NCBI GenBank assembly: GCA_043800255.1
Contig: JAZDNF010000001.1
Location: 96,001 to 160,000 of the forward strand
Source: Candidatus Altiarchaeota archaeon
GTDB taxonomy: Archaea > Altiarchaeota > Altiarchaeia > IMC4 > SCGC-AAA252-I15
Direction: 5' to 3'
Length of the DNA stretch: 64,000 nt
Shown: piece after piece, positions 4,896 through 55,294 of the stretch
How positions within the stretch are numbered: position 1 is the first letter of the stretch
Layout of the letters: each line of letters starts with the position of its first letter
Translations under genes and position numbers: made by a program
Notes under the pieces: model-generated
Seen by the model: the letters and a program-made list of their open reading frames with translations, nothing else
Told to the model about the DNA's origin: nothing
The model's database searches: none

Positions 4896-6011
4896 ATGGA
4901 AGATACGTCCAAGTACGCTCTCATGGGTTTGGAGGATTTCGAGAAAGTCCTGTCTGATATGCTTTCTGGGATGGGTTATACGATAAGTTCGATACGTCTT
5001 GAAGGTGATATGATAACCATAAGGGCTAAAACGACAGGCAAGATACTCAAGAAAGCCGTATTCGAAGTCCACCGGACGAGGAAGGTGTCCAAGCATGATG
5101 TCTCCAGTCTCTTGAAGAGGGTTGAGGCAGAGGGATACGATAGTCTTCATGTAATCTCACTCGACGGCTTTCAGAAGGGCGTTAGGTCATACTGTGGGCG
5201 TAAGTCGGTTGAGGCGATGGACGGCAGCCGGTTCCTGAGATTGATAAAAAAAGAGGCTCCCGATTCTGCAGGCAGGGAAAGGCACATACTCTACACACTA
5301 AGCTTCGGACGGGGAATACCGCCTGAGGAGGCTGAAAAACATTTCAAAAAAATCCTGAGGAAGGGCCCGCTGGGTTTTGGAGCAAAGGAGCGGATTATGG
5401 GCGTTGAATGCCGCTACACCCCTCTTGGCAGGTTCAAGATTACCGAGGCTAAGGCTGACATCCTAGCTGACCGGGCTGATGATTTTTACGTTGACCTTAA
5501 CTCCGGACTCCTATATTATGTGACGTTCGGCCTGCACAGGAACAAGATAAGAGTAAGGTCATCGGACGTGCTGGCCAAACTTCTGAAGCTGCCGATGGAA
5601 TGCTCTAACCTTCTGGGCTTCGTTTTCGAGAGGGAGATAACGAATTTCCACGACATTGTCAGCGTAGAGCGCGATGTCGTTAACGAGCATATCCTGATGC
5701 TGAGGGAGATGGATCTCATAGAGGTGACTTCAGACCCTAATCCCCAGATCCTATCCACCCTTAACATTCCGCGCCCAGCGAACATCAGATACGACCTCGG
5801 CCATCACCTGAGGATACTGGAGTCGCAGGATACCTCTTGCGAGGCTGACAGGATAATATACGATACTGATCTCATTGCCGGCGTTTTAGGCTCTTTTTTC
5901 AGGATGCCCTTCGAATTCAAGGATGTAGTGTACTTCCCCTACTATGTATGCATCATCGGAGACGAACGCGGGGTAACGCGGCGTGAGACTCTCCTCGCAG
6001 CCTCTCCCTAG
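4896..6011 (+). CDS. Mrr-like restriction-endonuclease-fold protein (degenerate), paralog A
   Basis: N-terminal EDFEKVLSDMLSGMGY...VISLDGF...MDG resembles Mrr_cat; C-terminal part is similar to the 6161 protein. Confidence 0.6.
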   Translation: MEDTSKYALMGLEDFEKVLSDMLSGMGYTISSIRLEGDMITIRAKTTGKILKKAVFEVHRTRKVSKHDVSSLLKRVEAEGYDSLHVISLDGFQKGVRSYCGRKSVEAMDGSRFLRLIKKEAPDSAGRERHILYTLSFGRGIPPEEAEKHFKKILRKGPLGFGAKERIMGVECRYTPLGRFKITEAKADILADRADDFYVDLNSGLLYYVTFGLHRNKIRVRSSDVLAKLLKLPMECSNLLGFVFEREITNFHDIVSVERDVVNEHILMLREMDLIEVTSDPNPQILSTLNIPRPANIRYDLGHHLRILESQDTSCEADRIIYDTDLIAGVLGSFFRMPFEFKDVVYFPYYVCIIGDERGVTRRETLLAASP

Positions 6012-6031
6012 CCGTTGGACGTGATTTATAG

Positions 6032-6133
6032 CGAATTGCATAAATAATTGAACATTTAGCTTTATGCAATTCGATATATGCAATTGCATATGCCGATTAA
6101 GAAAAGTTAAAAAACATATGTAATTGCCTATAT
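6032..6133. promoter_or_regulatory. Cluster of palindromic TATGCAATTGCATA-like sites (putative operator array)
   Basis: 13-bp inverted repeat CGAATTGCATAAA (6032-6044) / TTTATGCAATTCG (6061-6073); perfect 16-bp palindrome ATATGCAATTGCATAT (6076-6091); degenerate copy ATATGTAATTGCCTAT near 6116-6131. Confidence 0.55.
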
Positions 6134-6160
6134 TTACATAATCTGCTCAAATCATAACAT

Positions 6161-7585
6161 ATGATAGACCGGCTCCCAGACATCCTGGAGGTTGACGCAT
6201 TCGACTTCGAGAAGCTGATAGAGAAATTCATCAACAAGATGGGCTTCAAGGTCGAGTCCAGCAAGAGGTCTCCTGACGGCGACATCCACCTTCTGGCGAA
6301 GACCACAAACCCCATGGGCGGCGAGGTGACCTCACTGATAAGGGCAGGAGCCTACGACAGGAAGGTCGACGTTGACACGATAAAGGACCTCTATGATGAC
6401 ATGATAAGCCACTCTGCCGTCAGGGCAGCGTATATAACGACGTCCGACTTCACACCAGAGGCTAAAGACTTCGCGCGGGGCAAGCCGATGAGCCTGATAA
6501 ACAAGTACGAATTCATAGAGGCACTTGACAGGGAGGGCATCAAGATAGACCCTGAGATGTTCAACCTTCTTGAGGCGCACGGGCTCACAGAGAAGAGGTT
6601 CAGGGAAGAGAAAGTTTTTTTCGAGTTTTCCAAAAGCACCCCGGAGGTTGCCGAATACTTCGCCAAGCGCAGGAAAAAGAAAAAATTGGGGCTTTTTGGA
6701 GTGGAGGATGATGTCAGCACCATAGTGAAACGCTACGCGCCAATCGGCATCTTCCGCGTCGCCTGGTCGAAGGAGGCTTCAGCGGAGGCAAGATCCATTG
6801 CCGAGACCCAGTCTGAGGATAATATTTTCGTGAACCTTCATAACGCAAAGTTATACTACATAACGAGGAGCAGGAGACTGTCCTCTGGGGAGGTATTTGA
6901 AAGGTCGAATGTTCTGGCAGAGATACTGGACCTTCCTGAGGAGGCGAGGGCGCATCTCCTTTACCTGATAAGGTATGGCGACCTGCCTCACAAGCAGCTT
7001 GAGGACAAGAACCTTTCAATCCTTGAGAAGAGGAAAATAATACGAATCTATGCGGCTGGGTCAAATGTTCAGGGCGTTGGGCCCTTAAGGAGCATGATAG
7101 ACGTTCTTGTTTACGTGATGCGCGAGCTATCGGACTTTCTAGTGCTCTTCATCCACGGCATTACCGGCAGTACGCCTTCAACCCCTGAGAGGGAGCTTGC
7201 GACGAGAGAGGGCGAAGAAGAGGAGAAGCTGGTTGGCGCGACTGTTGTGATGCCTCACACGTACGGCGGTCAGTATGACATCCTGAAATATCTTGCCACT
7301 GAGAATGGGCATGACACGAAATTCGAAGAAGACAATGTCGTCTACCCCTCAAAGTCTGTTGCAGACCTGCTTGCCGTGATACTTGACGCTGACGTCGAGC
7401 CCAAGGGTGTGGTCTTCATGCCCTACACTGTCGGGTCGTACAGGGACAAATCAACAGGCAAGATAACCCGGCGCGATATTCTCGTATCCCCTAAGTTCTT
7501 ATCGCACAAGAAGGCGGAGGGCAAGAAAGTCCAAATGCAGGCGGAGAGGAGGGAGTTTGGAATCCCCTACAAGATTATCAGATAA
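6161..7585 (+). CDS. Mrr-like restriction-endonuclease-fold protein (degenerate), paralog B
   Basis: FDFEKLIEKFINKMGFKV...DGDIHLLA...AAYITTSDFTPEAKDFA...LINKYEF follows the Mrr_cat pattern. Confidence 0.7.
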   Translation: MIDRLPDILEVDAFDFEKLIEKFINKMGFKVESSKRSPDGDIHLLAKTTNPMGGEVTSLIRAGAYDRKVDVDTIKDLYDDMISHSAVRAAYITTSDFTPEAKDFARGKPMSLINKYEFIEALDREGIKIDPEMFNLLEAHGLTEKRFREEKVFFEFSKSTPEVAEYFAKRRKKKKLGLFGVEDDVSTIVKRYAPIGIFRVAWSKEASAEARSIAETQSEDNIFVNLHNAKLYYITRSRRLSSGEVFERSNVLAEILDLPEEARAHLLYLIRYGDLPHKQLEDKNLSILEKRKIIRIYAAGSNVQGVGPLRSMIDVLVYVMRELSDFLVLFIHGITGSTPSTPERELATREGEEEEKLVGATVVMPHTYGGQYDILKYLATENGHDTKFEEDNVVYPSKSVADLLAVILDADVEPKGVVFMPYTVGSYRDKSTGKITRRDILVSPKFLSHKKAEGKKVQMQAERREFGIPYKIIR

Positions 7586-9712: not shown

Positions 9713-9831
9713 GCTATTGTGAACATTAGACTGCATTTTTGCGAAAAATAATGAACATCTTTCATTTATATACCCTAGTTGTGCTATACTATACAGTATT
9801 TATTATTTTAAAAAAAATGGGAGGTGTCAAC

Positions 9832-10161
9832 GTGAACACAAAACATCTGGGTTTGGTTGCGGCGTTAGTCGTGCTAATGGCGAGTCTAGCCAGTGCACAG
9901 CTCGGATCTGCGCAGACAACTATCTGTAATATATTACAACAAGTATACACTTTACTGTTGTATATAGCGTCTGGTGTCGGTGCGGTGATGATAGTACTTA
10001 TGGGTGTGCTCTGGGTATCGTCCGCAGACAGCGCTAAGTCCAGAAATTCGGCAAAGAACGGTGTGGTCCATGCAATAATTGGATTAATCATCGTTTCACT
10101 GGCCATAGCACTTGTGACTATGGTTCTGCCAGAAGGTTCTGACTGCATTACCACATGGTAA
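9832..10161 (+). CDS. TrbC/VirB2-like pilin (solitary copy, candidate major pilin)
   Basis: GTG start 6 nt after a GGAGGTG Shine-Dalgarno; signal peptide ending ASA-Q; two hydrophobic helices around GVLWVSSADSAKSRNSAK..HAIIGLII. Confidence 0.8.
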   Translation: MNTKHLGLVAALVVLMASLASAQLGSAQTTICNILQQVYTLLLYIASGVGAVMIVLMGVLWVSSADSAKSRNSAKNGVVHAIIGLIIVSLAIALVTMVLPEGSDCITTW

Positions 10162-46295: not shown

Positions 46296-47879
46296 ATGCG
46301 TAAGTTTTTAATCCTGATACTGGCGCTTTCAGTCTTTTTCAGGTTCTATGACCTACACTCTGTTCCATCATGGGACTGGGACGAGGGAGTGAACTTGAAC
46401 GTAATCCGCAATCTGTTGGACGGACGATTTCAGCTCTTCTCTGTAAAATACACTTTCTTCCCTCATCCTCCGCTTTTTTTCATTGTCGGGGGGATGATGA
46501 TTAAGCTCTTCGGCTATGAACTTTATTCTCTGCGGCTGATGACCGCATTTTATGGTGTGCTTACTGCGTTGTTGGTTTATGCGATCTCGACCAAGATGTT
46601 CGGCAGAAGAGTTGGCATAACGGCTGGTCTGCTCTACGCATTATACCCCTCCGCAATATATTTCAGCAGAATAGGTTTCGCTAACAATCAGGTCGTGCTG
46701 CTGTCGGCCTTCTCGGTCTATGCAATCTATTCCTATCTTAGAAATGAAGGCGAAAGATGGCTCTATGTCGCATCCATTGCGAACGGCACAGCTATTATAA
46801 CAGAATATACGGCTGTGGCCGGTCTTGTAGCGTCTTCATACCTGTTGCTGAAATACAAAAAGGAGACCCTACCTAAGTTTCTTTTGGTATCCCTACTACT
46901 GCCTCTAACGGTTTTGTCTGCGCTGTTCCTGATGTCATCAGATTCTCTGGTCTATGACATACTCGTGCAGGTCAGGAGGGTCTCCACACCATTCTTTTTC
47001 CTTGTCGCCTCCCTAACCGTGGTTGCCATGTTAACCATCTACAAGTTCGGAAATTTCATCAGGGAATTCTTCAGGGTTTTCACCTCAAATCTGAACGAGG
47101 TTACCGTGCCCGCATTCGTCATGATATCCATCTTCTCGCTGAAGCTGCATTCCGGGGGCCTGCAATTAAATGACGATATGTTCTACGGCGGGGTAACATA
47201 TCTGAATCTCATGGGACTTCTAAGCGTTTTCCTGATACTCCCCACCCTAAAAAAATCCATCGAACGGAGCGCACTCTCAGCTTACACTATAGGATACCTC
47301 CTTCTGCTCCTCGCATTGAACAGAGCTGACCACATGCTCATGTTCATCTATCCTTACACAATCATGCTCCTGGGGCTGCTGATTGAGAAAACCTACGTTG
47401 TTGTGAGGGAGTTCACAAAGGAAAACAACATCAACCCGGTGATACTGGTTATAATGGCCTACCATCCCCTCTTCTTCATATTCGTGCAGGATGTGCAGAC
47501 GTTTGTCATAGGAAATGCCATTGGTTCGACCCATGAGAGCGATTTCCTGGGACTTGTCGACTACCTAAACAATAGAACAGAGCCTAATGATGTCATCCTC
47601 ACTTACAGTTTTCTTGAGCCCTACCTCAAAGGAAAGACGTGTACGGTGATAGAATCCATTGCGTATGAGGGTCAGTCGATAAAATACTATCCGGGGGACA
47701 TCGACAGGGACCGGTTCGTATTCAATTGTTCCTACAAGTATGCGAGGTATATCACCATGACAAACGGCACGAGGGATAACATGTTGGATGGTAAGGAGTA
47801 CGAAAACCTGTCAGACTATCTGGAAACCCTCGAATACGATGTAGTGGGCAATTTTTTCGTATATAAAAGGGATATTTAA
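46296..47879 (+). CDS. GT-C fold glycosyltransferase (GT39/PMT_2-like), paralog of 8102
   Basis: WDWDEGVN, PHPPLF, YALYP.AIY..R.GFANN, R.DHM, DVQ.FV are shared with the 8102 protein. Confidence 0.82.
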   Translation: MRKFLILILALSVFFRFYDLHSVPSWDWDEGVNLNVIRNLLDGRFQLFSVKYTFFPHPPLFFIVGGMMIKLFGYELYSLRLMTAFYGVLTALLVYAISTKMFGRRVGITAGLLYALYPSAIYFSRIGFANNQVVLLSAFSVYAIYSYLRNEGERWLYVASIANGTAIITEYTAVAGLVASSYLLLKYKKETLPKFLLVSLLLPLTVLSALFLMSSDSLVYDILVQVRRVSTPFFFLVASLTVVAMLTIYKFGNFIREFFRVFTSNLNEVTVPAFVMISIFSLKLHSGGLQLNDDMFYGGVTYLNLMGLLSVFLILPTLKKSIERSALSAYTIGYLLLLLALNRADHMLMFIYPYTIMLLGLLIEKTYVVVREFTKENNINPVILVIMAYHPLFFIFVQDVQTFVIGNAIGSTHESDFLGLVDYLNNRTEPNDVILTYSFLEPYLKGKTCTVIESIAYEGQSIKYYPGDIDRDRFVFNCSYKYARYITMTNGTRDNMLDGKEYENLSDYLETLEYDVVGNFFVYKRDI

Positions 47880-47901
47880 ATGCGTGATTTCATATTCTAA
47901 C

Positions 47902-48240
47902 ATGTCCAAGGCGAATCCAAGCAAGGTTCAATTGGCGTTTACCTCCATACTCCTTCTCATAGCCTTATCCAGCATAGTATCCGCTCAATCATGGGTTACG
48001 GCTGTTTCGAGCATAGTCTGCGGGCTTCTGGTTGACGCCCTCAAGAACATCGTAGGAGCCTTGGCTGCCGTGGTCTTCGTATATTCCGGCGTAGAATACG
48101 TCATCTCCCAGGACGATCCAGGAAAGAGGAAGAATGCCAGGGACATGATGATATACGCATTGGTCGGTATCATCCTGGTTGGAATTGCTGCTACGATAAT
48201 CGGCGCTGTCCCGGGTTTCACAGGCTTGGGGTGCACATAA
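47902..48240 (+). CDS. TrbC/VirB2-like pilin 1
   Basis: Signal VSA-Q; IVC; GVEYVISQDDPGKRKNAR; C-terminal GCT. Confidence 0.82.
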   Translation: MSKANPSKVQLAFTSILLLIALSSIVSAQSWVTAVSSIVCGLLVDALKNIVGALAAVVFVYSGVEYVISQDDPGKRKNARDMMIYALVGIILVGIAATIIGAVPGFTGLGCT

Positions 48241-48242
48241 AA

Positions 48243-48644
48243 ATGAGAAGGGCAAAATTGATGTCAGATATTTTCGAGAACATGAGATTATTCGAGAACG
48301 TAAACAAGATACTTGTCGTGTTGTTTGTTTTATCAACTCTGACCCAGGGTCAGATGTCCTCCTCCAGCATATCCTCACCAGTCAATGAGATACTCTGCAT
48401 GATTTACAACGGCATATACCAGATTGCGGCTTCCCTTGCTGTGCTGGTTTTCGTGTTCGCTGGGGTCAAGTATGTTTCATCCATGGACGACCCTGGCAAG
48501 AGGAAATCAGCCAAGGATACCATGATAGCTGCCATAATCGGGTTAATAATCGTTTCAATCGGCAAGGCTCTCGTCAATCAGGTTCTCGAGAGCGTGTTGG
48601 GCTCAGGCTACAGCGTATCGTCTGCGTGTCTTGACTTCACTTAA
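48243..48644 (+). CDS. TrbC/VirB2-like pilin 2
   Basis: TQG-Q; ILC; GVKYVSSMDDPGKRKSAK; SACLDFT; start codon uncertain. Confidence 0.82.
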   Translation: MRRAKLMSDIFENMRLFENVNKILVVLFVLSTLTQGQMSSSSISSPVNEILCMIYNGIYQIAASLAVLVFVFAGVKYVSSMDDPGKRKSAKDTMIAAIIGLIIVSIGKALVNQVLESVLGSGYSVSSACLDFT

Positions 48645-48648
48645 GATT

Positions 48649-48990
48649 ATGAAGCCTTCAACTCAATTGAATAGAACTTGTGTTATATGCGCGCTTGCAT
48701 TTCTTGCGGTTCTAATATGCTCAGCAGACGCTCAGACCATAACGCCCCAATCCATATTCGTCCCAGTCTCGTCCATCGTATGCACCTTCAGGAGGGCGAT
48801 AGTTGAAATAGTGGGCGCCCTGGCATCGGTCATATTCGTGATATCCGGAATACGGTGGATATGGTCCCAGGACGACCCAGGCAAGAGGAAATCCGCAAAG
48901 GATGCGATGGTTCATGCCATAGTCGGCCTGATAATAATCGGGGTTGCGGATGAGATTGTTCAAAGCTTCAATTTCGTCGGGTGCACTTAA
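48649..48990 (+). CDS. TrbC/VirB2-like pilin 3
   Basis: ADA-Q; IVC; GIRWIWSQDDPGKRKSAK; GCT. Confidence 0.82.
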   Translation: MKPSTQLNRTCVICALAFLAVLICSADAQTITPQSIFVPVSSIVCTFRRAIVEIVGALASVIFVISGIRWIWSQDDPGKRKSAKDAMVHAIVGLIIIGVADEIVQSFNFVGCT

Positions 48991-48992
48991 AG

Positions 48993-49337
48993 ATGAAATC
49001 AACAACGTATCTGGTGCTGTTGGCGGTATTGGCGGCCGGCATTACGGTCGCGCAGACAATGTCGTCTGATGTCATCTCCGACCCGGTGCTTGCGATAGTG
49101 TGCGGCATATACAACGCATTCAGAACGATAGGCGTCACCATCGGAGGCCTCGTATTCTTATATGCTGGCGTAAAGTATGTAACTGAGAGCGACGATCCCG
49201 CGGCAAGGAAGCAGGCCAGGGACATCATGAAGATCATGGTAATCGGGATTGGCATAATCCTGCTCGCAGACGTGACAATATACACCGTAGGCGGCACTGC
49301 CCTCTCAAACTCGTGCGTACCCTACATTCCAACATAA
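48993..49337 (+). CDS. TrbC/VirB2-like pilin 4
   Basis: TVA-Q; IVC; GVKYVTESDDPAARKQAR; SCVPYIPT. Confidence 0.82.
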   Translation: MKSTTYLVLLAVLAAGITVAQTMSSDVISDPVLAIVCGIYNAFRTIGVTIGGLVFLYAGVKYVTESDDPAARKQARDIMKIMVIGIGIILLADVTIYTVGGTALSNSCVPYIPT

Positions 49338-49338
49338 A

Positions 49339-49689
49339 ATGAAAACTAAGGCCCTTATCCTGGCAGGCTTCATTTTGCTGGCTGCGCAAACAGTCTCATC
49401 TCAGACCGTCGGGACATCGCTCACGAATGAGATATGGAGCTATGTAAAACCGGTAGTATGCGGACTATTCGTCGGTTTCACCCTGATAGGAGGGTCTATT
49501 GCAAGCGTTATGATAATCTACGCCGGCATAAAATATCTGACATCAGCCGATGACCCAGCGGCTCGGAAGAATGCGAAGGATATGATAACCCATGCGATGA
49601 TAGGAATCGTAATCATCCTTATCGCCAATTTTATCGTGGCCACGGTAACCCAGGGCGAGTTTTTCGGGTGCCAGTACTGGACATTCTAA
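49339..49689 (+). CDS. TrbC/VirB2-like pilin 5
   Basis: VSS-Q; VVC; GIKYLTSADDPAARKNAK; GCQYWTF. Confidence 0.82.
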   Translation: MKTKALILAGFILLAAQTVSSQTVGTSLTNEIWSYVKPVVCGLFVGFTLIGGSIASVMIIYAGIKYLTSADDPAARKNAKDMITHAMIGIVIILIANFIVATVTQGEFFGCQYWTF

Positions 49690-49690
49690 A

Positions 49691-50035
49691 ATGAAAATTA
49701 AGGTAACTAAAGCCCTAGTGATGCTCGGATTAATGGCCCTAGTTGGTCAGGTTGCCGCTCAGTTTCCTGTTTACTCGCTTGACACGCTTATCTACACACT
49801 CACGGATCCTATACTCTGCTCGATTTACAACGGCTTTAAGATGATAGCAGGCGGGCTTGCTGTCGTTATGCTGGTTTTAGCTGGAGTTAAATGGATGTCT
49901 GCCGCAGACGATCCCCCAGCAAGAAAAGTCGCGAAGGACATGGTGATACACACTGTAATTGCCCTTATAATAATCGTGCTCGCGACTTTGATCGTTGATA
50001 TAGCGTCCGGCGGACAGCTGACGGCTTGTCCATAG
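49691..50035 (+). CDS. TrbC/VirB2-like pilin 6
   Basis: VAA-Q; ILC; GVKWMSAADDPPARKVAK; ACP. Confidence 0.82.
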   Translation: MKIKVTKALVMLGLMALVGQVAAQFPVYSLDTLIYTLTDPILCSIYNGFKMIAGGLAVVMLVLAGVKWMSAADDPPARKVAKDMVIHTVIALIIIVLATLIVDIASGGQLTACP

Positions 50036-50055
50036 CATCTAATAGCGGATGACCT

Positions 50056-50385
50056 ATGAAAAAGAACGCCCTAATCCTAATACTTTTTTGTTATATGACG
50101 TCCGGAATTTTCGAGTACGCCGGCGAGATTTCTTCACAAATATCGACGGTATTTGAGACTTCGTTCTGCACAGTATACACTGTGATATGGTACCTTGCAG
50201 GAGTCCTAGCATCCGCCATTATCGTGGTTCAGGGCCTGAAGTGGGTGGAGGCTGACGATGACCCCGGCCAGAGGCAGCGTGCTAAAGAGACGATCGTGAA
50301 TGTGATATACGCTCTGATCTTCATAATCATCGGGAAGATACTCGCAGAGCTGATTATCGGCGAAACTTTCAACTGTGCGCCCTAA
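50056..50385 (+). CDS. TrbC/VirB2-like pilin 7
   Basis: SFC; GLKWVEADDDPGQRQRAK; NCAP. Confidence 0.8.
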   Translation: MKKNALILILFCYMTSGIFEYAGEISSQISTVFETSFCTVYTVIWYLAGVLASAIIVVQGLKWVEADDDPGQRQRAKETIVNVIYALIFIIIGKILAELIIGETFNCAP

Positions 50386-50420
50386 TCCCTTTATTAATTT
50401 ACAATTAGAATCTGTATAAC

Positions 50421-50756
50421 ATGAGGCGGTTAGCTGTCCTTATCCTACTCCTTCTCATCGTTTCAACTGGCGGATGTGTAACAGACGATTTTGATACGTT
50501 CATAGCGGACCTCACAACGCTTCTGGAAGAGATGGCGCAGATGATATGCGACCTGAACGAGGCTGTTCAGCTGATCGTGGGCGTCGTAGGCTCTTTTGTA
50601 ATAGTCCTCGCAGGCCTTAAATGGGTTGGATCGCAGGACAACCCCCAGGAAAGGACTAAGGCTAAGCAGATGCTTCAGGCGGTAGTCGTTGGTTTCGCAA
50701 TAGTGGCGTCAGCGACTTTTATAGTCGAATTTGTACTGGGAAGCAGCTGCATCTGA
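50421..50756 (+). CDS. TrbC/VirB2-like pilin 8 (lipobox-like signal)
   Basis: MRRLAVLILLLLIVSTGG-C; MIC; GLKWVGSQDNPQERTKAK; SCI. Confidence 0.8.
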   Translation: MRRLAVLILLLLIVSTGGCVTDDFDTFIADLTTLLEEMAQMICDLNEAVQLIVGVVGSFVIVLAGLKWVGSQDNPQERTKAKQMLQAVVVGFAIVASATFIVEFVLGSSCI

Positions 50757-50792
50757 GCCGCTTTATATACGTTCAAAAGAAGTTATATAACA

Positions 50793-51116
50793 ATGTCCGC
50801 CAGTAGCAAGGCCATCCATCTGACTTTCCTCATATTGTCCGTATCAGGGAGCGTTTCAGCTCATCCTCTCACGGATTCGATAGCTGACAACCTGTGCATG
50901 ATATTCCAGGCCATAATCCTCATGACCGGCGTTATAGCCGTTCTCATGATCACGATAGCTGGCATGAGATGGATAGGTTCCGAGGACGATCCAGCTGCCA
51001 GGCAGAAATCAAAGGAGCAGGTTGAGAGCATAATAGTCGGGCTGATTATCGCGGCGGCCTCTATCGGCACTGCTGCTGTCGTGACCGGTCAGACTCCCTG
51101 CGTGTGGCCGATATAA
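50793..51116 (+). CDS. TrbC/VirB2-like pilin 9
   Basis: VSA-H; NLC; GMRWIGSEDDPAARQKSK; PCVWPI. Confidence 0.8.
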   Translation: MSASSKAIHLTFLILSVSGSVSAHPLTDSIADNLCMIFQAIILMTGVIAVLMITIAGMRWIGSEDDPAARQKSKEQVESIIVGLIIAAASIGTAAVVTGQTPCVWPI

Positions 51117-51117
51117 C

Positions 51118-51405
51118 ATGGTTAACGTAGATTTTACGCCGGCACTGAAGTACATATGCGTGATGTCATGTTTCATCAGGCTTGTTGTCGGCCCGATAGC
51201 GGTCCTGATATTGTCTCTTGCAGCGCTACACTGGCTTAAGTCCGAGGACAAGCCAGACGAGAGGAAGCAGTCCAAGCAGCAAATGAAGAACGTGCTGGCT
51301 GGTATCGTAATCATAACCATAGGTTACATTGTGGTTGAGGCAATCTTAGGCTCGGCTTCCATGGTAAACTGTGATGCGGTAACAGGTAACGCATGTCCAG
51401 TATGA
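51118..51405 (+). CDS. TrbC/VirB2-like pilin 10 (no signal peptide, 4 Cys)
   Basis: YICVMSC; ALHWLKSEDKPDERKQSK; NCDAVTGNACPV. Confidence 0.75.
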   Translation: MVNVDFTPALKYICVMSCFIRLVVGPIAVLILSLAALHWLKSEDKPDERKQSKQQMKNVLAGIVIITIGYIVVEAILGSASMVNCDAVTGNACPV

Positions 51406-51716
51406 AAAAGATCACAATTGTCATAGCAGGCGTGTTGTCAGCCGGCTCAGCGGCTGCGATAACCGGATTGCAACTTGTGCAACCCGTCTACGATGTTGTC
51501 TGCCTTTTTAAGGATGCTGTTGAGAATACCATAGGCGCGTTAGCCGCCATTCTTTTCGTATATGCTGGCATAAAATGGATAACCTCCGAGGAGGTGGAGG
51601 AGCAATTGCACGCGAGGGACATACTGGTGTACACTATAATCGGGCTGATACTGCTTGGGGTTATTGGAGGCATTACGCGCATACTCTTCCCAAATGTAAT
51701 CCTATCGTGCATTTAA
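51402..51716 (+). CDS. TrbC/VirB2-like pilin 11 (acidic loop)
   Basis: SAAA-I signal; VVC; GIKWITSEEVEEQLHAR; SCI. Confidence 0.78.
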   Translation: MKKITIVIAGVLSAGSAAAITGLQLVQPVYDVVCLFKDAVENTIGALAAILFVYAGIKWITSEEVEEQLHARDILVYTIIGLILLGVIGGITRILFPNVILSCI

Positions 51717-51722
51717 CAGAGA

Positions 51723-52508
51723 ATGAAAGTGTTGGACGTATTCAAGGAGAACGGGTGCGCTTTCATGCCGTACGTCTGCGCCGGAGACCCTGACCTAGTC
51801 ACAAGTAAGGAGATTGTGGGGGCTTTAGTCGGCAGCGGGGCTGACGTCATAGAGCTGGGTCTGCCCTTTTCTGACCCTATTGCGGACGGTCCCACAATCC
51901 AGGTTGCAGCCCAGAGGGCTTTGGATGCGGGAATGAACACGGATAAATACTTCAAACTATGCGGCCAGGTTTCGAGGGAATATGATGTCGCCCTTGTCTG
52001 CATGACCTATTATAACCTGATTTTCAATTACGGTTTGGACAGGTTCGCGAGGATGTGCGCTAAATCAGGCGTTTCAGGTTTAATCGTTCCGGATCTGCCT
52101 GTTGAGGAATCAGGCAGCTTGAAGAAAGCTTGCAGGAAGCGGGGTCTGGACCTGATACACCTTGTGGCTCCAACCACTATCGGGAAGAGGCGTGATCGAA
52201 TAGTCAAGGACAGCACAGGCTTCATCTACCTGGTGTCAGTGACCGGCGTAACTGGGGCTAGGAGGAACGTGGGGGTTGAAGTCGAAGGGCTGTTGAAGAA
52301 GATGAAGAGGAAAACCAAGCTTCCAGTCTGCATCGGTTTCGGGGTGTCGAAGCCTTCGCATGTTAAGGAGCTCAAGAGGATGGGCTTCGACGGCGTCATA
52401 GTGGGAAGCGCGATAGTGGATGTGATAGAAAAGAACCTCGGGAGCAAGCAGCGGATGCTCTCCCAGCTGAAGAAATTCGCGAAAAGCCTCAGCGATGCGA
52501 GGCTTTGA
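51723..52508 (+). CDS. trpA: Tryptophan synthase alpha chain
   Basis: IELGLPFSDPIADGPTIQ, MTYYN, PDLP, GVTG, GFGVS, DGVIVGSA. Confidence 0.97.
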   Translation: MKVLDVFKENGCAFMPYVCAGDPDLVTSKEIVGALVGSGADVIELGLPFSDPIADGPTIQVAAQRALDAGMNTDKYFKLCGQVSREYDVALVCMTYYNLIFNYGLDRFARMCAKSGVSGLIVPDLPVEESGSLKKACRKRGLDLIHLVAPTTIGKRRDRIVKDSTGFIYLVSVTGVTGARRNVGVEVEGLLKKMKRKTKLPVCIGFGVSKPSHVKELKRMGFDGVIVGSAIVDVIEKNLGSKQRMLSQLKKFAKSLSDARL

Positions 52509-52510
52509 CA

Positions 52511-55294
52511 TTAGTCGATTATCTCATAAGCTCTGACGTAGCCCCAGGAGCTGTAGTCCTGCTCGCCTGGGTAGTCCTCAAAGCCGTTGAATTCGTCCAA
52601 AAGCCTGAAGTGTTTCAAGGGGGTTATCTCCCTGTTGTACAGGCCGTACTGCTTGTACTCTTCGATGTAGTCTCCAAGATAGAGTTTTGTCATCATGAAG
52701 TCTGAGAACTCTCCCGGGACGTAGACTAGCGTGTTGTAGGGCGGGAACCTGCATATGTTGTTCTCAGGCAGTCTAGCCCACTGTGTGGTGCACGTCATTA
52801 TAGTGCTGAGAGGCTGCACTCCCAGTATGGAGGCGTCGTTGTCCTGTATCCAGTTGTCCCAGAGTATCCGCCTGCCGTACAGGTCCATGACCGATACTGT
52901 GAAAGAGTTCTCGCTCACGTCGAATATGACATAGGATATGTACGCTGGAACGCACCTGAAAACGATCCTTTGGGTGTAGGCTACGGTTCCATCCTCCTTC
53001 GTTGTGATCCTCGGCTTGAGGTCGCTCTCCTGCGGCGAGAAGCCGCAGTGGGCGTAGTTCCTGAACGAGCCTATGATTTCGTTGTCTATGTCGCCTGTTG
53101 CTATCTCATGGAGGGCGGATCCCTTCCCTATCATCGTCCAGTCTATCACCACGTACCTGAGGTCTACTCCCTCAGGGTATAAGTTCGTAATGTTCGAGTA
53201 CATGCTCGAGTAGTTTCTGACTATGTCGAAAGCCTCCTCCTCTGATGTCTTGTTCACGAAAAATCTTGCGACATCCTGTATCTGGAAGGCGTCAGCTTGC
53301 AGGTTGTCTATTAGGACAGACCTATACCCTGTTGATGTGATCCAGTGCCCATAGTCCCACCACGTTATTATTGCGGTATTGTTTGGGGTTTTCTCTCTCA
53401 TCCATGTGAGCGCCGGCTGCCAGTAGTATACGTCACCCAGCCCGGTATAGAGTGGGTGAACTCCGACGAACTTGTCATAGTTTGATGCGCCTGTGAACGG
53501 TATAAAGATTAATGGCGTAATCATAACGAATATCGCGCCTATGATCCTGATGCTCTCAAAGTCTTTCTTTTTGGCTATTGAGAACAGGCCGATGGTCGCT
53601 CCCAGCGCTGCTATGGGCACGCTTGCTGTGAACAGGTACTGTGACTTGTTGTACACGCCGTATATCATCGGCAGGCTCCATGTCAATATGAACAAGGCGC
53701 CGAAACTCCTCCTGGTCAGGCCGATATAAAGTAATACTGGGATCATCACCAGCCCGTAAAGGATTGCTATGCCGAATCTCATGGGAGTATACGCAAGGAA
53801 CTCTTTTATCGAATTTGAAGTTGGATTCTGCTCTGCTATTGTGACGGTTATCACATCATGGGCTCTGACGTCCTTTACGATTTCGAGCATCTGATTCTTA
53901 ATCAGGTCCCATCCTATATAATACGACCCTGCGATCACAGAGGCCACAATCAGCAGCGTTATCGGTGCCATGTTATCCCGTATTGTGTTCTCTATGCTGT
54001 CCATAAACACCTTCTTTTCCACCCTGTTTTTTCCATACCTGTGCTTTCTGATATTCTCCAGGATTATCGTCACCAGCAGCATGCCTGCGAGAGTTGCTGC
54101 GATGATGTTCCCCGGGTAGAAGCTGTTGATGTTCGGAAGCGTCTTCAGGGGATGTAAGAAGAATGGTGTAAGGAAGCTTGGAATTAGTGCAATCAGCACG
54201 TAGGGGATGTGTTCTAGGCAGTCTCGCCTGTGGATGAAATTCACCAGCGAATAGACTATGCTGAATATTGCGATTATTATGGCGGCGTATACGTATCCTC
54301 CCCAGGACATCCTAAGCAGCAGGAAACTGTAACCTGAAAGCAAGGCGAGTATGAGGCTTTTCCTCCTGAATGCCATGACAAAAAGATAAAAGCTTGCCAC
54401 GAACAGGAACATGCCCATGGCGTCATCCTCCGTGTTCGATGCGATTGCGCTGATCGCAAATGCGGGGCTTAACATGAGCATGAAAGCCGCGAGAATCGCC
54501 GCAATATTGTTGTACGGTGGCATGTCATGGAAAAGCTCCTTGACAAGGAGATAAAACAACAAAACCGTTAGCGCGCCCATTATCCCCCCGTATAACATCG
54601 CGACATCATACAATGATATCCCAATCAGCTTTGTCAGAGTTGCCATTGACGCTATGAACAGCGATGCGAAAAGCGGCACTACTGATATGTTCAGGCCGGG
54701 CGGTATGTTCGGGTTGTATTTCTGTATTCCCCCCCATATGGGGTATGTCATATAATCGTGGTCTGGGAGGAAGCCCGTAGTGTAGGTCAAATCTGCCCAC
54801 TTATAGTACCAGTAGGGGTCTATGTTTGAGATGAACGGCAGTTCGGCTGGCACGAGATGTATGATCAACGTCGAGAGAAATAGCGCGAGAACTGCTGCCA
54901 TCTGGGGTTTCATGAGCTTGTGCATTGATGCTGCATAGGCCAGCAGGAACACTCCGAATACGACCGAGAATATGGTGTAATCCCTGCCCATCCCTCCGGC
55001 GTATATTGTCGAATAGTAGAGGAAGAGGGTCACGACGAATATCAGCACCGGAACTCCGAAAAACCAGAAGTTTTTTGTGCCCCCCTTGAAGTACATCTTG
55101 ATGAAATACAGGCTCAGGCATCCGATGAAGAAGCTGCCGATGTACAGGACGCCTGCGACGCTTCCCATTCCGACAATAAGGCGGGCCGCGGCTATGAGGA
55201 AAGCTATTATGGAAAGCAGGAACAGCGGCTCCTGAATGTGTTCGGCGAAATCCGGAAGTTTCAGCTTTATCTCAAAACCTTCAGAGTCTCCCAT
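52511..55294 (-). CDS. aglB: Oligosaccharyltransferase AglB (STT3)
   Basis: IDPYWY, TIAEQ, WWDYG, many TM helices. Confidence 0.92.
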   Translation of the reverse strand: MGDSEGFEIKLKLPDFAEHIQEPLFLLSIIAFLIAAARLIVGMGSVAGVLYIGSFFIGCLSLYFIKMYFKGGTKNFWFFGVPVLIFVVTLFLYYSTIYAGGMGRDYTIFSVVFGVFLLAYAASMHKLMKPQMAAVLALFLSTLIIHLVPAELPFISNIDPYWYYKWADLTYTTGFLPDHDYMTYPIWGGIQKYNPNIPPGLNISVVPLFASLFIASMATLTKLIGISLYDVAMLYGGIMGALTVLLFYLLVKELFHDMPPYNNIAAILAAFMLMLSPAFAISAIASNTEDDAMGMFLFVASFYLFVMAFRRKSLILALLSGYSFLLLRMSWGGYVYAAIIIAIFSIVYSLVNFIHRRDCLEHIPYVLIALIPSFLTPFFLHPLKTLPNINSFYPGNIIAATLAGMLLVTIILENIRKHRYGKNRVEKKVFMDSIENTIRDNMAPITLLIVASVIAGSYYIGWDLIKNQMLEIVKDVRAHDVITVTIAEQNPTSNSIKEFLAYTPMRFGIAILYGLVMIPVLLYIGLTRRSFGALFILTWSLPMIYGVYNKSQYLFTASVPIAALGATIGLFSIAKKKDFESIRIIGAIFVMITPLIFIPFTGASNYDKFVGVHPLYTGLGDVYYWQPALTWMREKTPNNTAIITWWDYGHWITSTGYRSVLIDNLQADAFQIQDVARFFVNKTSEEEAFDIVRNYSSMYSNITNLYPEGVDLRYVVIDWTMIGKGSALHEIATGDIDNEIIGSFRNYAHCGFSPQESDLKPRITTKEDGTVAYTQRIVFRCVPAYISYVIFDVSENSFTVSVMDLYGRRILWDNWIQDNDASILGVQPLSTIMTCTTQWARLPENNICRFPPYNTLVYVPGEFSDFMMTKLYLGDYIEEYKQYGLYNREITPLKHFRLLDEFNGFEDYPGEQDYSSWGYVRAYEIID

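Follow-up and report, generated by a model that had tools for sequence, protein, structure and literature searches.

A conserved cysteine pair that may close VirB2-type pilins of a Candidatus Altiarchaeota archaeon

Introduction

The pili of conjugation-type (VirB2) systems are polymers of protein and lipid, and for a long time their stability has been tied to covalent closure of the subunit. The RP4 TrbC pilin, described by Eisenbrandt in 1999, is said to be cyclised head to tail by TraF. The link with closure is now disputed for the T-pilus. According to the accessible part of PMC9905601, Agrobacterium VirB2 is not cyclic by cryo-electron microscopy, its ends lying about 34 Å apart. Here we analysed a 64,000-nucleotide stretch of a Candidatus Altiarchaeota archaeon (the window; positions 96,001 to 160,000 of contig JAZDNF010000001.1), which encodes 12 VirB2-type pilins, 11 of them in a tandem array. 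Each of the 12 carries a Cys where the first membrane helix begins and another near the C-terminus. We favour, with moderate confidence, a reading in which an intrasubunit disulfide on the outer face would link the first turn of helix 1 with the C-terminal tail.

Like RP4 TrbC, the window pilins belong to the VirB2 family and would have their two outer ends covalently joined, an arrangement for which a stabilising role has been proposed. In TrbC the joint is a peptide bond made at the true termini by a dedicated peptidase, whereas the window pilins would have a disulfide between the tail and the first turn of helix 1. Bacterial type IV pilins also carry an outer-side Cys pair, the C-terminal disulfide loop or D-region, which is made by the envelope oxidation system and is needed for assembly. 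These pilins have another fold and another machinery, and their loop is local, whereas the pair in the window pilins spans the hairpin.

The pilins of Agrobacterium VirB2 and archaeal CedA1/TedC pili are two-helix hairpins with a lumen-facing loop, as predicted for the window pilins, and the first mature residue of VirB2 is Gln, as in 7 of our 12 predictions (accessible text of PMC9905601). That text differs in reporting no disulfide, with the words "disulfide" and "cysteine" each occurring 0 times, and Ced and Ted belong to Thermoproteota, not Altiarchaeota. The VirB2-like arrays of Patescibacteria share the PF18895/PF04956 family and form tandem arrays of 2–11 diverged paralogs at a mean identity of 25%, against 22–42% for the window pilins; they often come with no relaxase and can lie away from virB4 (accessible text of PMC12102498). 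Unlike these, the window array belongs to an archaeon and sits in a conserved housekeeping locus, and relatives in our sample that are like Candidate Phyla Radiation (CPR) ones mostly lack the pair described here. In the accessible text of PMC12102498, "disulfide" occurs 0 times and "cysteine" once, on VirB1, and its passages returned by term search make no mention of poly-pilins, the tandem-hairpin proteins described below. The literature searched, with most subscription journals outside its coverage, yielded no report of a disulfide in a VirB2-type pilin or of such arrays in Altiarchaeota. The papers that came up dealt with VirB7–VirB9 disulfides or did no more than mention an "N-terminal cysteine" in Anaplasma VirB2 paralogs (accessible passages of PMC3556328 and PMC2653234).

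Pilin genes of the window

The window carries markers of an archaeal chromosome (RadA, LonB, AglB, aIF2-alpha, Kae1 and an archaeal S-adenosylmethionine synthetase), and its RadA is 73–78% identical to RadA of Candidatus Altiarchaeota/Altiarchaeales metagenome-assembled genomes. Eleven consecutive open reading frames (ORFs) of 95–137 codons each run head to tail on the + strand at 47884–51716, and a twelfth, solo pilin ORF lies apart from them at 9739–10161. All 11 array copies match PF18895 (T4SS_pilin; T4SS, type IV secretion system) at 27.1–49.2 bits, above the curated cut-off of 26.6 bits, as does the solo copy at 41 bits (domain at G000:C8:105913-106122). Because these matches exceed the curated cut-off, we assign the 12 ORFs to the VirB2-type pilins; the PF04956 (TrbC/VirB2) cut-off is passed only by copies 2 and 3. 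In labels used here, G000 is the window's own genome (93% complete) and C its contigs, while G and L denote related genomes and fetched loci and P denotes proteins from the profile search. Aligned copy by copy, the pilins have a leader peptide, two hydrophobic helices and a short charged loop, with copy 10 lacking the leader. The 12 genes are as follows.

47884..48240, + strand: pilin copy 1, 118 aa; Cys codons 48019-48021 and 48232-48234; PF18895 49.2 bits
48231..48644, + strand: pilin copy 2, 137 aa from the longest start; Cys codons 48396-48398 and 48627-48629; PF18895 46 bits, PF04956 34.4 bits
48631..48990, + strand: pilin copy 3, 119 aa; paired Cys codons 48781-48783 and 48982-48984, with 3 extra leader Cys; PF18895 47.2 bits, PF04956 39.6 bits
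48981..49337, + strand: pilin copy 4, 118 aa; Cys codons 49101-49103 and 49314-49316; PF18895 36.4 bits
49339..49689, + strand: pilin copy 5, 116 aa; Cys codons 49459-49461 and 49669-49671; PF18895 48.3 bits
49691..50035, + strand: pilin copy 6, 114 aa; Cys codons 49817-49819 and 50027-50029; PF18895 49.2 bits; modelled mature form 49760-50032
50056..50385, + strand: pilin copy 7, 109 aa; paired Cys codons 50167-50169 and 50374-50376, with 1 leader Cys; PF18895 39.5 bits
50421..50756, + strand: pilin copy 8, 111 aa; paired Cys codons 50547-50549 and 50748-50750, with a third Cys in STGGC; PF18895 43.4 bits
50793..51116, + strand: pilin copy 9, 107 aa; Cys codons 50895-50897 and 51099-51101; PF18895 31.4 bits
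51118..51405, + strand: pilin copy 10, 95 aa, no signal peptide; CxxxC codons 51157-51159 and 51169-51171, Cx7C codons 51370-51372 and 51394-51396; PF18895 27.1 bits
51393..51716, + strand: pilin copy 11, 107 aa; Cys codons 51501-51503 and 51708-51710; PF18895 30.9 bits
9739..10161, + strand: solo pilin, 140 aa from the longest start; Cys codons 9925-9927 and 10144-10146; PF18895 41 bits

Twelve is the count for the window only; the whole genome has 22 PF18895 matches. Among its further small pilins, those at C5:53199 and C7:155690 have the Cys pair, the one at C5:74348 has the tail Cys only, and the one at C11:90962 has Cys at -27 and +40 relative to the loop.

Cysteine pattern of the window pilins

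An earlier note on this DNA had described a Cys pair in all 12 pilins, set in otherwise poorly conserved sequence, and both the ORFs and the alignment bear this out. The C-terminal Cys falls within the last 2–7 residues in 12/12, with 1–6 residues after it, and each of the Cys contexts listed in the note (IVC, ILC, VVC, SFC, MIC, NLC and TIC) is found in the alignment. The N-side Cys had been placed 21–25 residues before the loop Gly, which is the conserved Gly of an A-G-x-K-W/Y motif. This agrees with the 11 array copies (22–23 residues) but not with the solo copy (26 residues), whose N-side Cys sits one helical turn upstream of the array column; the residue is thus aligned in 11/12. The surroundings are indeed divergent, at 22–42% identity to copy 1, with merely five columns conserved at 90% or above (C46, G69, D77, R82 and C117 in copy 1 numbering), two of which are Cys. 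Gln directly follows the predicted cleavage site in 7/12 (copies 1–6 and the solo copy) when the -3/-1 rule is applied by eye, as the note had also counted.

The 12 proteins contain 31 Cys in 1391 residues, and 23 of these fall in the two conserved columns. Five of the remaining eight lie in the N-terminal leader region, three of them in copy 3 and one in each of copies 7 and 8; copy 10 contributes its extra pair, and the last is the N-side Cys of the solo copy. Along the chain the two members of a pair are 66–78 residues apart, a distance spanning the whole hairpin. In the predicted mature chain, 11–19 residues precede the N-side Cys, which stands where helix 1 begins. Eleven window copies have a single pair. 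Copy 10 has two Cys on each side (a 2+2 form, by N-side and tail counts), with CxxxC matched by a Cx7C tail, and a relative, P0162, is a 95-aa leaderless form with the same four Cys. Copy 10 starts one base past the stop of copy 9 and has no space for a signal peptide, yet it retains its hairpin. The copy 9/copy 10 junction has a spacing like that of a poly-pilin linker. The leader of copy 8 ends in a lipobox-like STGGC, and this pilin may be lipid-anchored through its third Cys.

Covariation of the two cysteines in relatives

In this order the pilin family is very large: we surveyed 61 related genomes of 0.9–2.4 Mb, 48 of which have PF18895 matches, at 2–30 per genome. The 48 include every other genome of the window's family (20) and every genome of one sister family (22), and no match was found in 12 genomes from two other families of the same class. 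Twenty pilin-rich loci were fetched from 18 related genomes and, together with the window genome, were searched with a hidden Markov model built from the 12-pilin alignment with every Cys masked, so the cysteines could not select the matches. In the resulting 128 domains, Cys offsets from the loop cluster at -31/-30 and at +36 to +48, with satellite N-side offsets at -35 and -27, each one helical turn off, and with very few Cys from about -26 to +30. Both groups are occupied in 99 domains, the N-side only in 7, the C-side only in 10 and neither in 12, counts that are inflated by the near-identical arrays L001 and L002. Compared by eye across the 128 domains, the tail Cys offset showed no clear shift between pilins with the N-side Cys at -35 and those with it at -31. 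When identical sequences are removed, 83 single-domain pilins are left. Of these, 79 have an even number of outer Cys, with 63 of the 1+1 form and 5 of the 2+2 form.

A profile search of 1.84 billion representatives gave 39,084 matches at E <= 0.001, of which the best 150 were listed. Among these best 150 of 39,084, 114 are multi-repeat proteins: 71 are Cys-free, 21 are fully paired and 22 are "mixed". The apparent N-only repeats of the mixed group have their tail Cys further out, at +54 to +73, and a longer linker, and repeats with such longer linkers still have exactly one tail Cys. No isolated Cys-paired repeat between Cys-free repeats, which would have told pairing inside a unit from pairing between units, was seen in the multi-hairpin proteins among the matches listed. 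Pooling all sources gave 615 non-identical domains, in which the N-side and C-side counts are equal in 528 (0+0 in 280, 1+1 in 212 and 2+2 in 36); 335 have any outer Cys, and the total is even in 286 of these. The co-conservation and co-variation in homologs that the earlier note had named as a check are therefore present, in the even totals of 79/83, in the equal counts of 528/615 and in the clusters described below. Of 49 more distant CPR-like single-domain pilins, 31 have neither Cys; both are present in 15, of which 6 belong to the window itself. The N/C pair thus marks a clade rather than the whole family, because these distant CPR-like pilins mostly lack it.

The proteins that dominate the best 150 of the 39,084 matches are poly-pilins, in which 2–17 VirB2-like hairpins stand in tandem within one protein. 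Examples are P0004 (1775 aa, 17 repeats), P0005-P0030 and L015:5407-8031 (874 aa, 6 repeats), and at locus L018:4960-12372 three ORFs have 7, 4 and 7 repeats. Each repeat has the spacing of one mature pilin, and within a protein the repeats are all Cys-paired or all Cys-free. The CPR-like pilins (P0167, P0169, P0173, P0174, P0177, P0180 and others) often have a local Cys pair near -60/-45, in the outer N-segment with about 10–15 residues between the two Cys, which differs from the N/C pair.

Second-pair forms

Two N-side Cys occur in 49 of the 615 domains, and in 43 of the 49 they form CxxxC. Of these 43 CxxxC domains, 42 have at least two tail Cys, 33 have a tail starting CxC, and 1 has no tail Cys. 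After clustering at 50% identity, the 2+2 state appears in 9 of 178 clusters, 4 of which also contain 1+1 members, and none of the 178 clusters mixes 0+0 with 1+1. Both sides have therefore changed together more than once. What defines the cysteine-stabilised alpha/beta scaffold of defensins and scorpion toxins is a helical CxxxC that is disulfide-bonded to a CxC in a strand or extended segment (accessible text of PMC4695807), and 33 of the 43 CxxxC pilin domains of relatives show this combination of CxxxC and CxC. The defensins and toxins are unrelated, small, soluble peptides, and the only CxxxC copy of the window, copy 10, has Cx7C and not CxC. This matching of CxxxC with CxC is the strongest signal, and it argues that the helix-1 Cys is likely to pair with the tail Cys.

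Predicted structure and topology

An AlphaFold2 model of mature copy 6, made from a 117-row alignment, has a mean predicted local distance difference test (pLDDT) score of 85, with helices at residues 7–47 and 52–83. Cys20 lies inside helix 1 and Cys90 seven residues past helix 2, in a segment (residues 81–90) with a mean pLDDT of 80. By antiparallel hairpin register, Cys20 would be level with residue ~79, one turn below the end of helix 2, and at that level the seven-residue tail should be able to reach it. The fold searches proved uninformative because the query is a plain helical hairpin: Foldseek against the PDB returned no match at E <= 0.001 for the copy 6 model, with CedA1 (8dfu) ranked second but not significant (probability 0.60, TMq 0.55), the VIA wide fold search gave generic hairpins only (Z <= 8.8), and the PDB sequence profile found only TrwL, weakly (E = 0.15).

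Each gene would encode a VirB2/TrbC-type subunit that begins with a Sec signal peptide and a short N-segment on the outer side, continues through helix 1, a loop and helix 2, and ends in a short outer tail. The loop between the helices is rich in Lys and Arg (DDPxxRK) and would be cytoplasmic or lumen-facing. From the leader, the positive-inside rule applied to this loop and the family, we infer that both Cys lie outside the membrane; the earlier note would have taken a position on opposite sides as a refutation, and the predicted topology puts both on the extracytoplasmic side. Export and leader cleavage would leave both at the hairpin's outer end: the first turn of the membrane helix would contain the N-side Cys and the tip of the tail its partner, and oxidation would form the intrasubunit disulfide. 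The loop would then shut the inner end of the hairpin and the disulfide the outer end. Such a clamp would hold the helices together during membrane extraction and polymerisation, and it would pin the tail, guarding it against proteases.

The earlier note had further suggested that an N-to-C disulfide could mimic cyclisation. The two Cys do co-vary and are placed on the same side, but the closure would not be head to tail because the 11–19 residues ahead of the N-side Cys stay free. The likeness to TrbC cyclisation is in effect only.

Alternative explanations

The tail Cys of one pilin might instead bond to the helix-1 Cys of the next, making the filament a covalent polymer, which we judge unlikely. 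Sequence alone cannot tell an intrasubunit from an intersubunit bond, and the count-matching and the CxxxC/CxC forms suit N-to-C pairing across an interface equally well. The outer surface, which would carry both Cys, is where subunit ends come close in the architecture of the family. In the poly-pilin P0016, moreover, the tail Cys of each repeat stands a near-constant 16–22 residues ahead of the N-side Cys of the next repeat. This spacing is explained by simple concatenation of units, however, because it equals the free N-segment of single pilins (11–19 residues). The tail-less last repeats carry a second N-side Cys at -37 in 2/4 proteins, which suggests a partner within the unit, and the membrane pool of subunits could be oxidised before assembly only with an intramolecular bond.

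A second alternative, also improbable in our view, is that the Cys are not oxidised and serve as free thiols, as surface metal ligands (two per subunit, or four in the CxxxC/CxC forms) or as sites of another modification. Several findings on the genome speak for it, and these same findings count against an intrasubunit disulfide. Neither VKOR nor DsbB was found in the window's 93%-complete genome. In favour of the disulfide, the genome has two DsbA-like proteins (PF13462 and PF01323; CPFC or CPYC, with a lipobox-like leader or a membrane anchor), but one of their genes adjoins a DsbD_2/CcdA-type gene, usually a mark of a reducing pathway. Across the relatives, DsbA-like genes are patchy (23/61 genomes) and do not track the Cys pair. 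They occur in 12/20 genomes of the window's family against 3/22 of the sister family, and many relatives that keep the pair have none; they were not found in G024 (97% complete) or G034 (85%), whose multi-hairpin pilins retain it. A Dutton-type test over the whole genome, made with crude ORF calling and a rough signal-peptide rule, found no significant excess of even Cys counts in exported-like proteins (55/106) over cytoplasmic-like ones (414/928; p = 0.18). The machinery and this parity test weaken the disulfide reading without overturning it. Altiarchaeota are anaerobes, in which exposed disulfides are less expected, and the lifestyle here is probably anoxic. The paired or quadruple Cys counts would suit a metal site too.

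As a metal site, CxxxC with CxC would, on the other hand, have an unusual spacing. Together the two motifs form a disulfide signature (accessible text of PMC4695807). The tail Cys position is loose (+36 to +73), which is fine for a tether and unusual for a fixed metal site, and the window alignment shows no His, Asp or other ligand conserved beside the Cys. 

Further points weigh against the intrasubunit disulfide. The fold does not require the Cys pair, because the 280 of 615 domains with no outer Cys and the 31 of 49 distant single-domain relatives do without it. The copy 10 model is weak, with a pLDDT of 71.7 overall and 55–57 in the tail. The relatives counted above are not independent of one another.

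That the pair is merely inherited and has no present function is very improbable: all copies are paralogs of one family and the many domains lacking outer Cys would fit, but at 22–42% identity two of just five highly conserved columns are Cys, second Cys were gained on both sides together in 9 clusters, and the tail Cys is retained despite varying tail length and sequence.

An observation on thiol chemistry concerns contig C7 of the window's genome, where an exported DsbA-like (CPYC) gene overlaps a DsbD_2/CcdA-type membrane gene with a cupredoxin-like tail, and an FtrD-like gene follows (L022:1468-3377). This group may be an envelope thiol-redox module.

Genomic neighbourhood and secretion genes

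No T4SS assembly gene (VirB4, VirB3/PrgI or VirB6) was found in the window. The genome has one T4SS-like locus, on contig C5, with a PrgI/VirB3-like gene, a VirB4-like ATPase (P-loop_TraG at 96 bits, AAA_10) and further pilins; its TrbL/VirB6 match is weak, at 20.7 bits and under its cut-off. This VirB4-like/PrgI-like/VirB6-like locus could assemble the Cys-paired pilins. The locus also includes giant membrane proteins with a pilin-like hairpin at their start, and a 739-aa protein there combines a pilin hairpin with a thrombospondin-type repeat. One giant hairpin-start membrane protein on C7 ends in a metallophosphoesterase domain. These observations cover L023:5508-10757 (1749 aa), L023:11255-13045, L024:645-6606 and L025:5585-9856 (1423 aa).

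Two genes of the window stand directly upstream of pilins.

46296..47879, + strand: PMT_2-type (GT-C) glycosyltransferase-like gene, directly upstream of the array; PF13231 56.1 bits
8102..9712, + strand: paralogous PMT_2-type gene, directly upstream of the solo pilin; PF13231 55.4 bits

At 3/3 such loci of the genome (the two in the window and L023:2892-4490), the gene directly upstream of the pilin gene or array is a PMT_2-type (GT-C, protein O-mannosyltransferase-like) gene, and it has the same strand. The same order is present in 5/20 fetched loci (L001, L002, L003, L007 and L010), with two PMT_2-type copies ahead of each 14-gene array in L001 and L002. This synteny suggests that the Ser/Thr-rich outer N-segment of the pilins may be O-glycosylated by the PMT_2-type enzyme. 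In the window the order is PMT_2, array, trpA and aglB, within a conserved chromosomal locus (47884–55294). After the array comes a convergent aglB, both in the window and in six fetched loci (L001, L002, L005, L007, L008 and L009), and trpA lies between array and aglB in the window and in three fetched loci. With AglB N-glycosylation in mind, the outer pilin segments of the window copies were read by eye, and no N-x-S/T sequon was seen. For the array, no RNA data set was listed, and the DNA data sets listed had small shares only.

Elsewhere in the window, at 4896–7585, two neighbouring genes have Mrr_cat restriction-endonuclease domains, and one of them also matches a NACHT-associated inactive restriction-endonuclease domain.

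Discussion

The Cys pair of these pilins is a real and strongly constrained feature, and the disulfide chemistry is what its covariation leads us to infer. A Cys-paired VirB2-type pilin would be a new variation on a known pilin type. It is possible, though we put this forward only tentatively, that a whole archaeal order builds its conjugation-type subunits as clamped hairpins with one or two disulfides, the second in a defensin-like CxxxC/CxC geometry, independently of the peptide cyclisation of IncP pilins and in anaerobes that have no DsbB or VKOR and often no DsbA; this would imply an unrecognised extracytoplasmic route of thiol oxidation.

If the intrasubunit disulfide is correct, the disulfide-closed clade, with its Cys-free sister clades as natural controls, would permit a direct test of the role of closure in membrane extraction, polymerisation and resistance. 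It would also raise the question of how an anaerobe with neither DsbB nor VKOR oxidises its pilins. For the Altiarchaeota, with their 2–30 family matches per genome, the closed hairpin would mark many of these pilins as real, constrained surface proteins.

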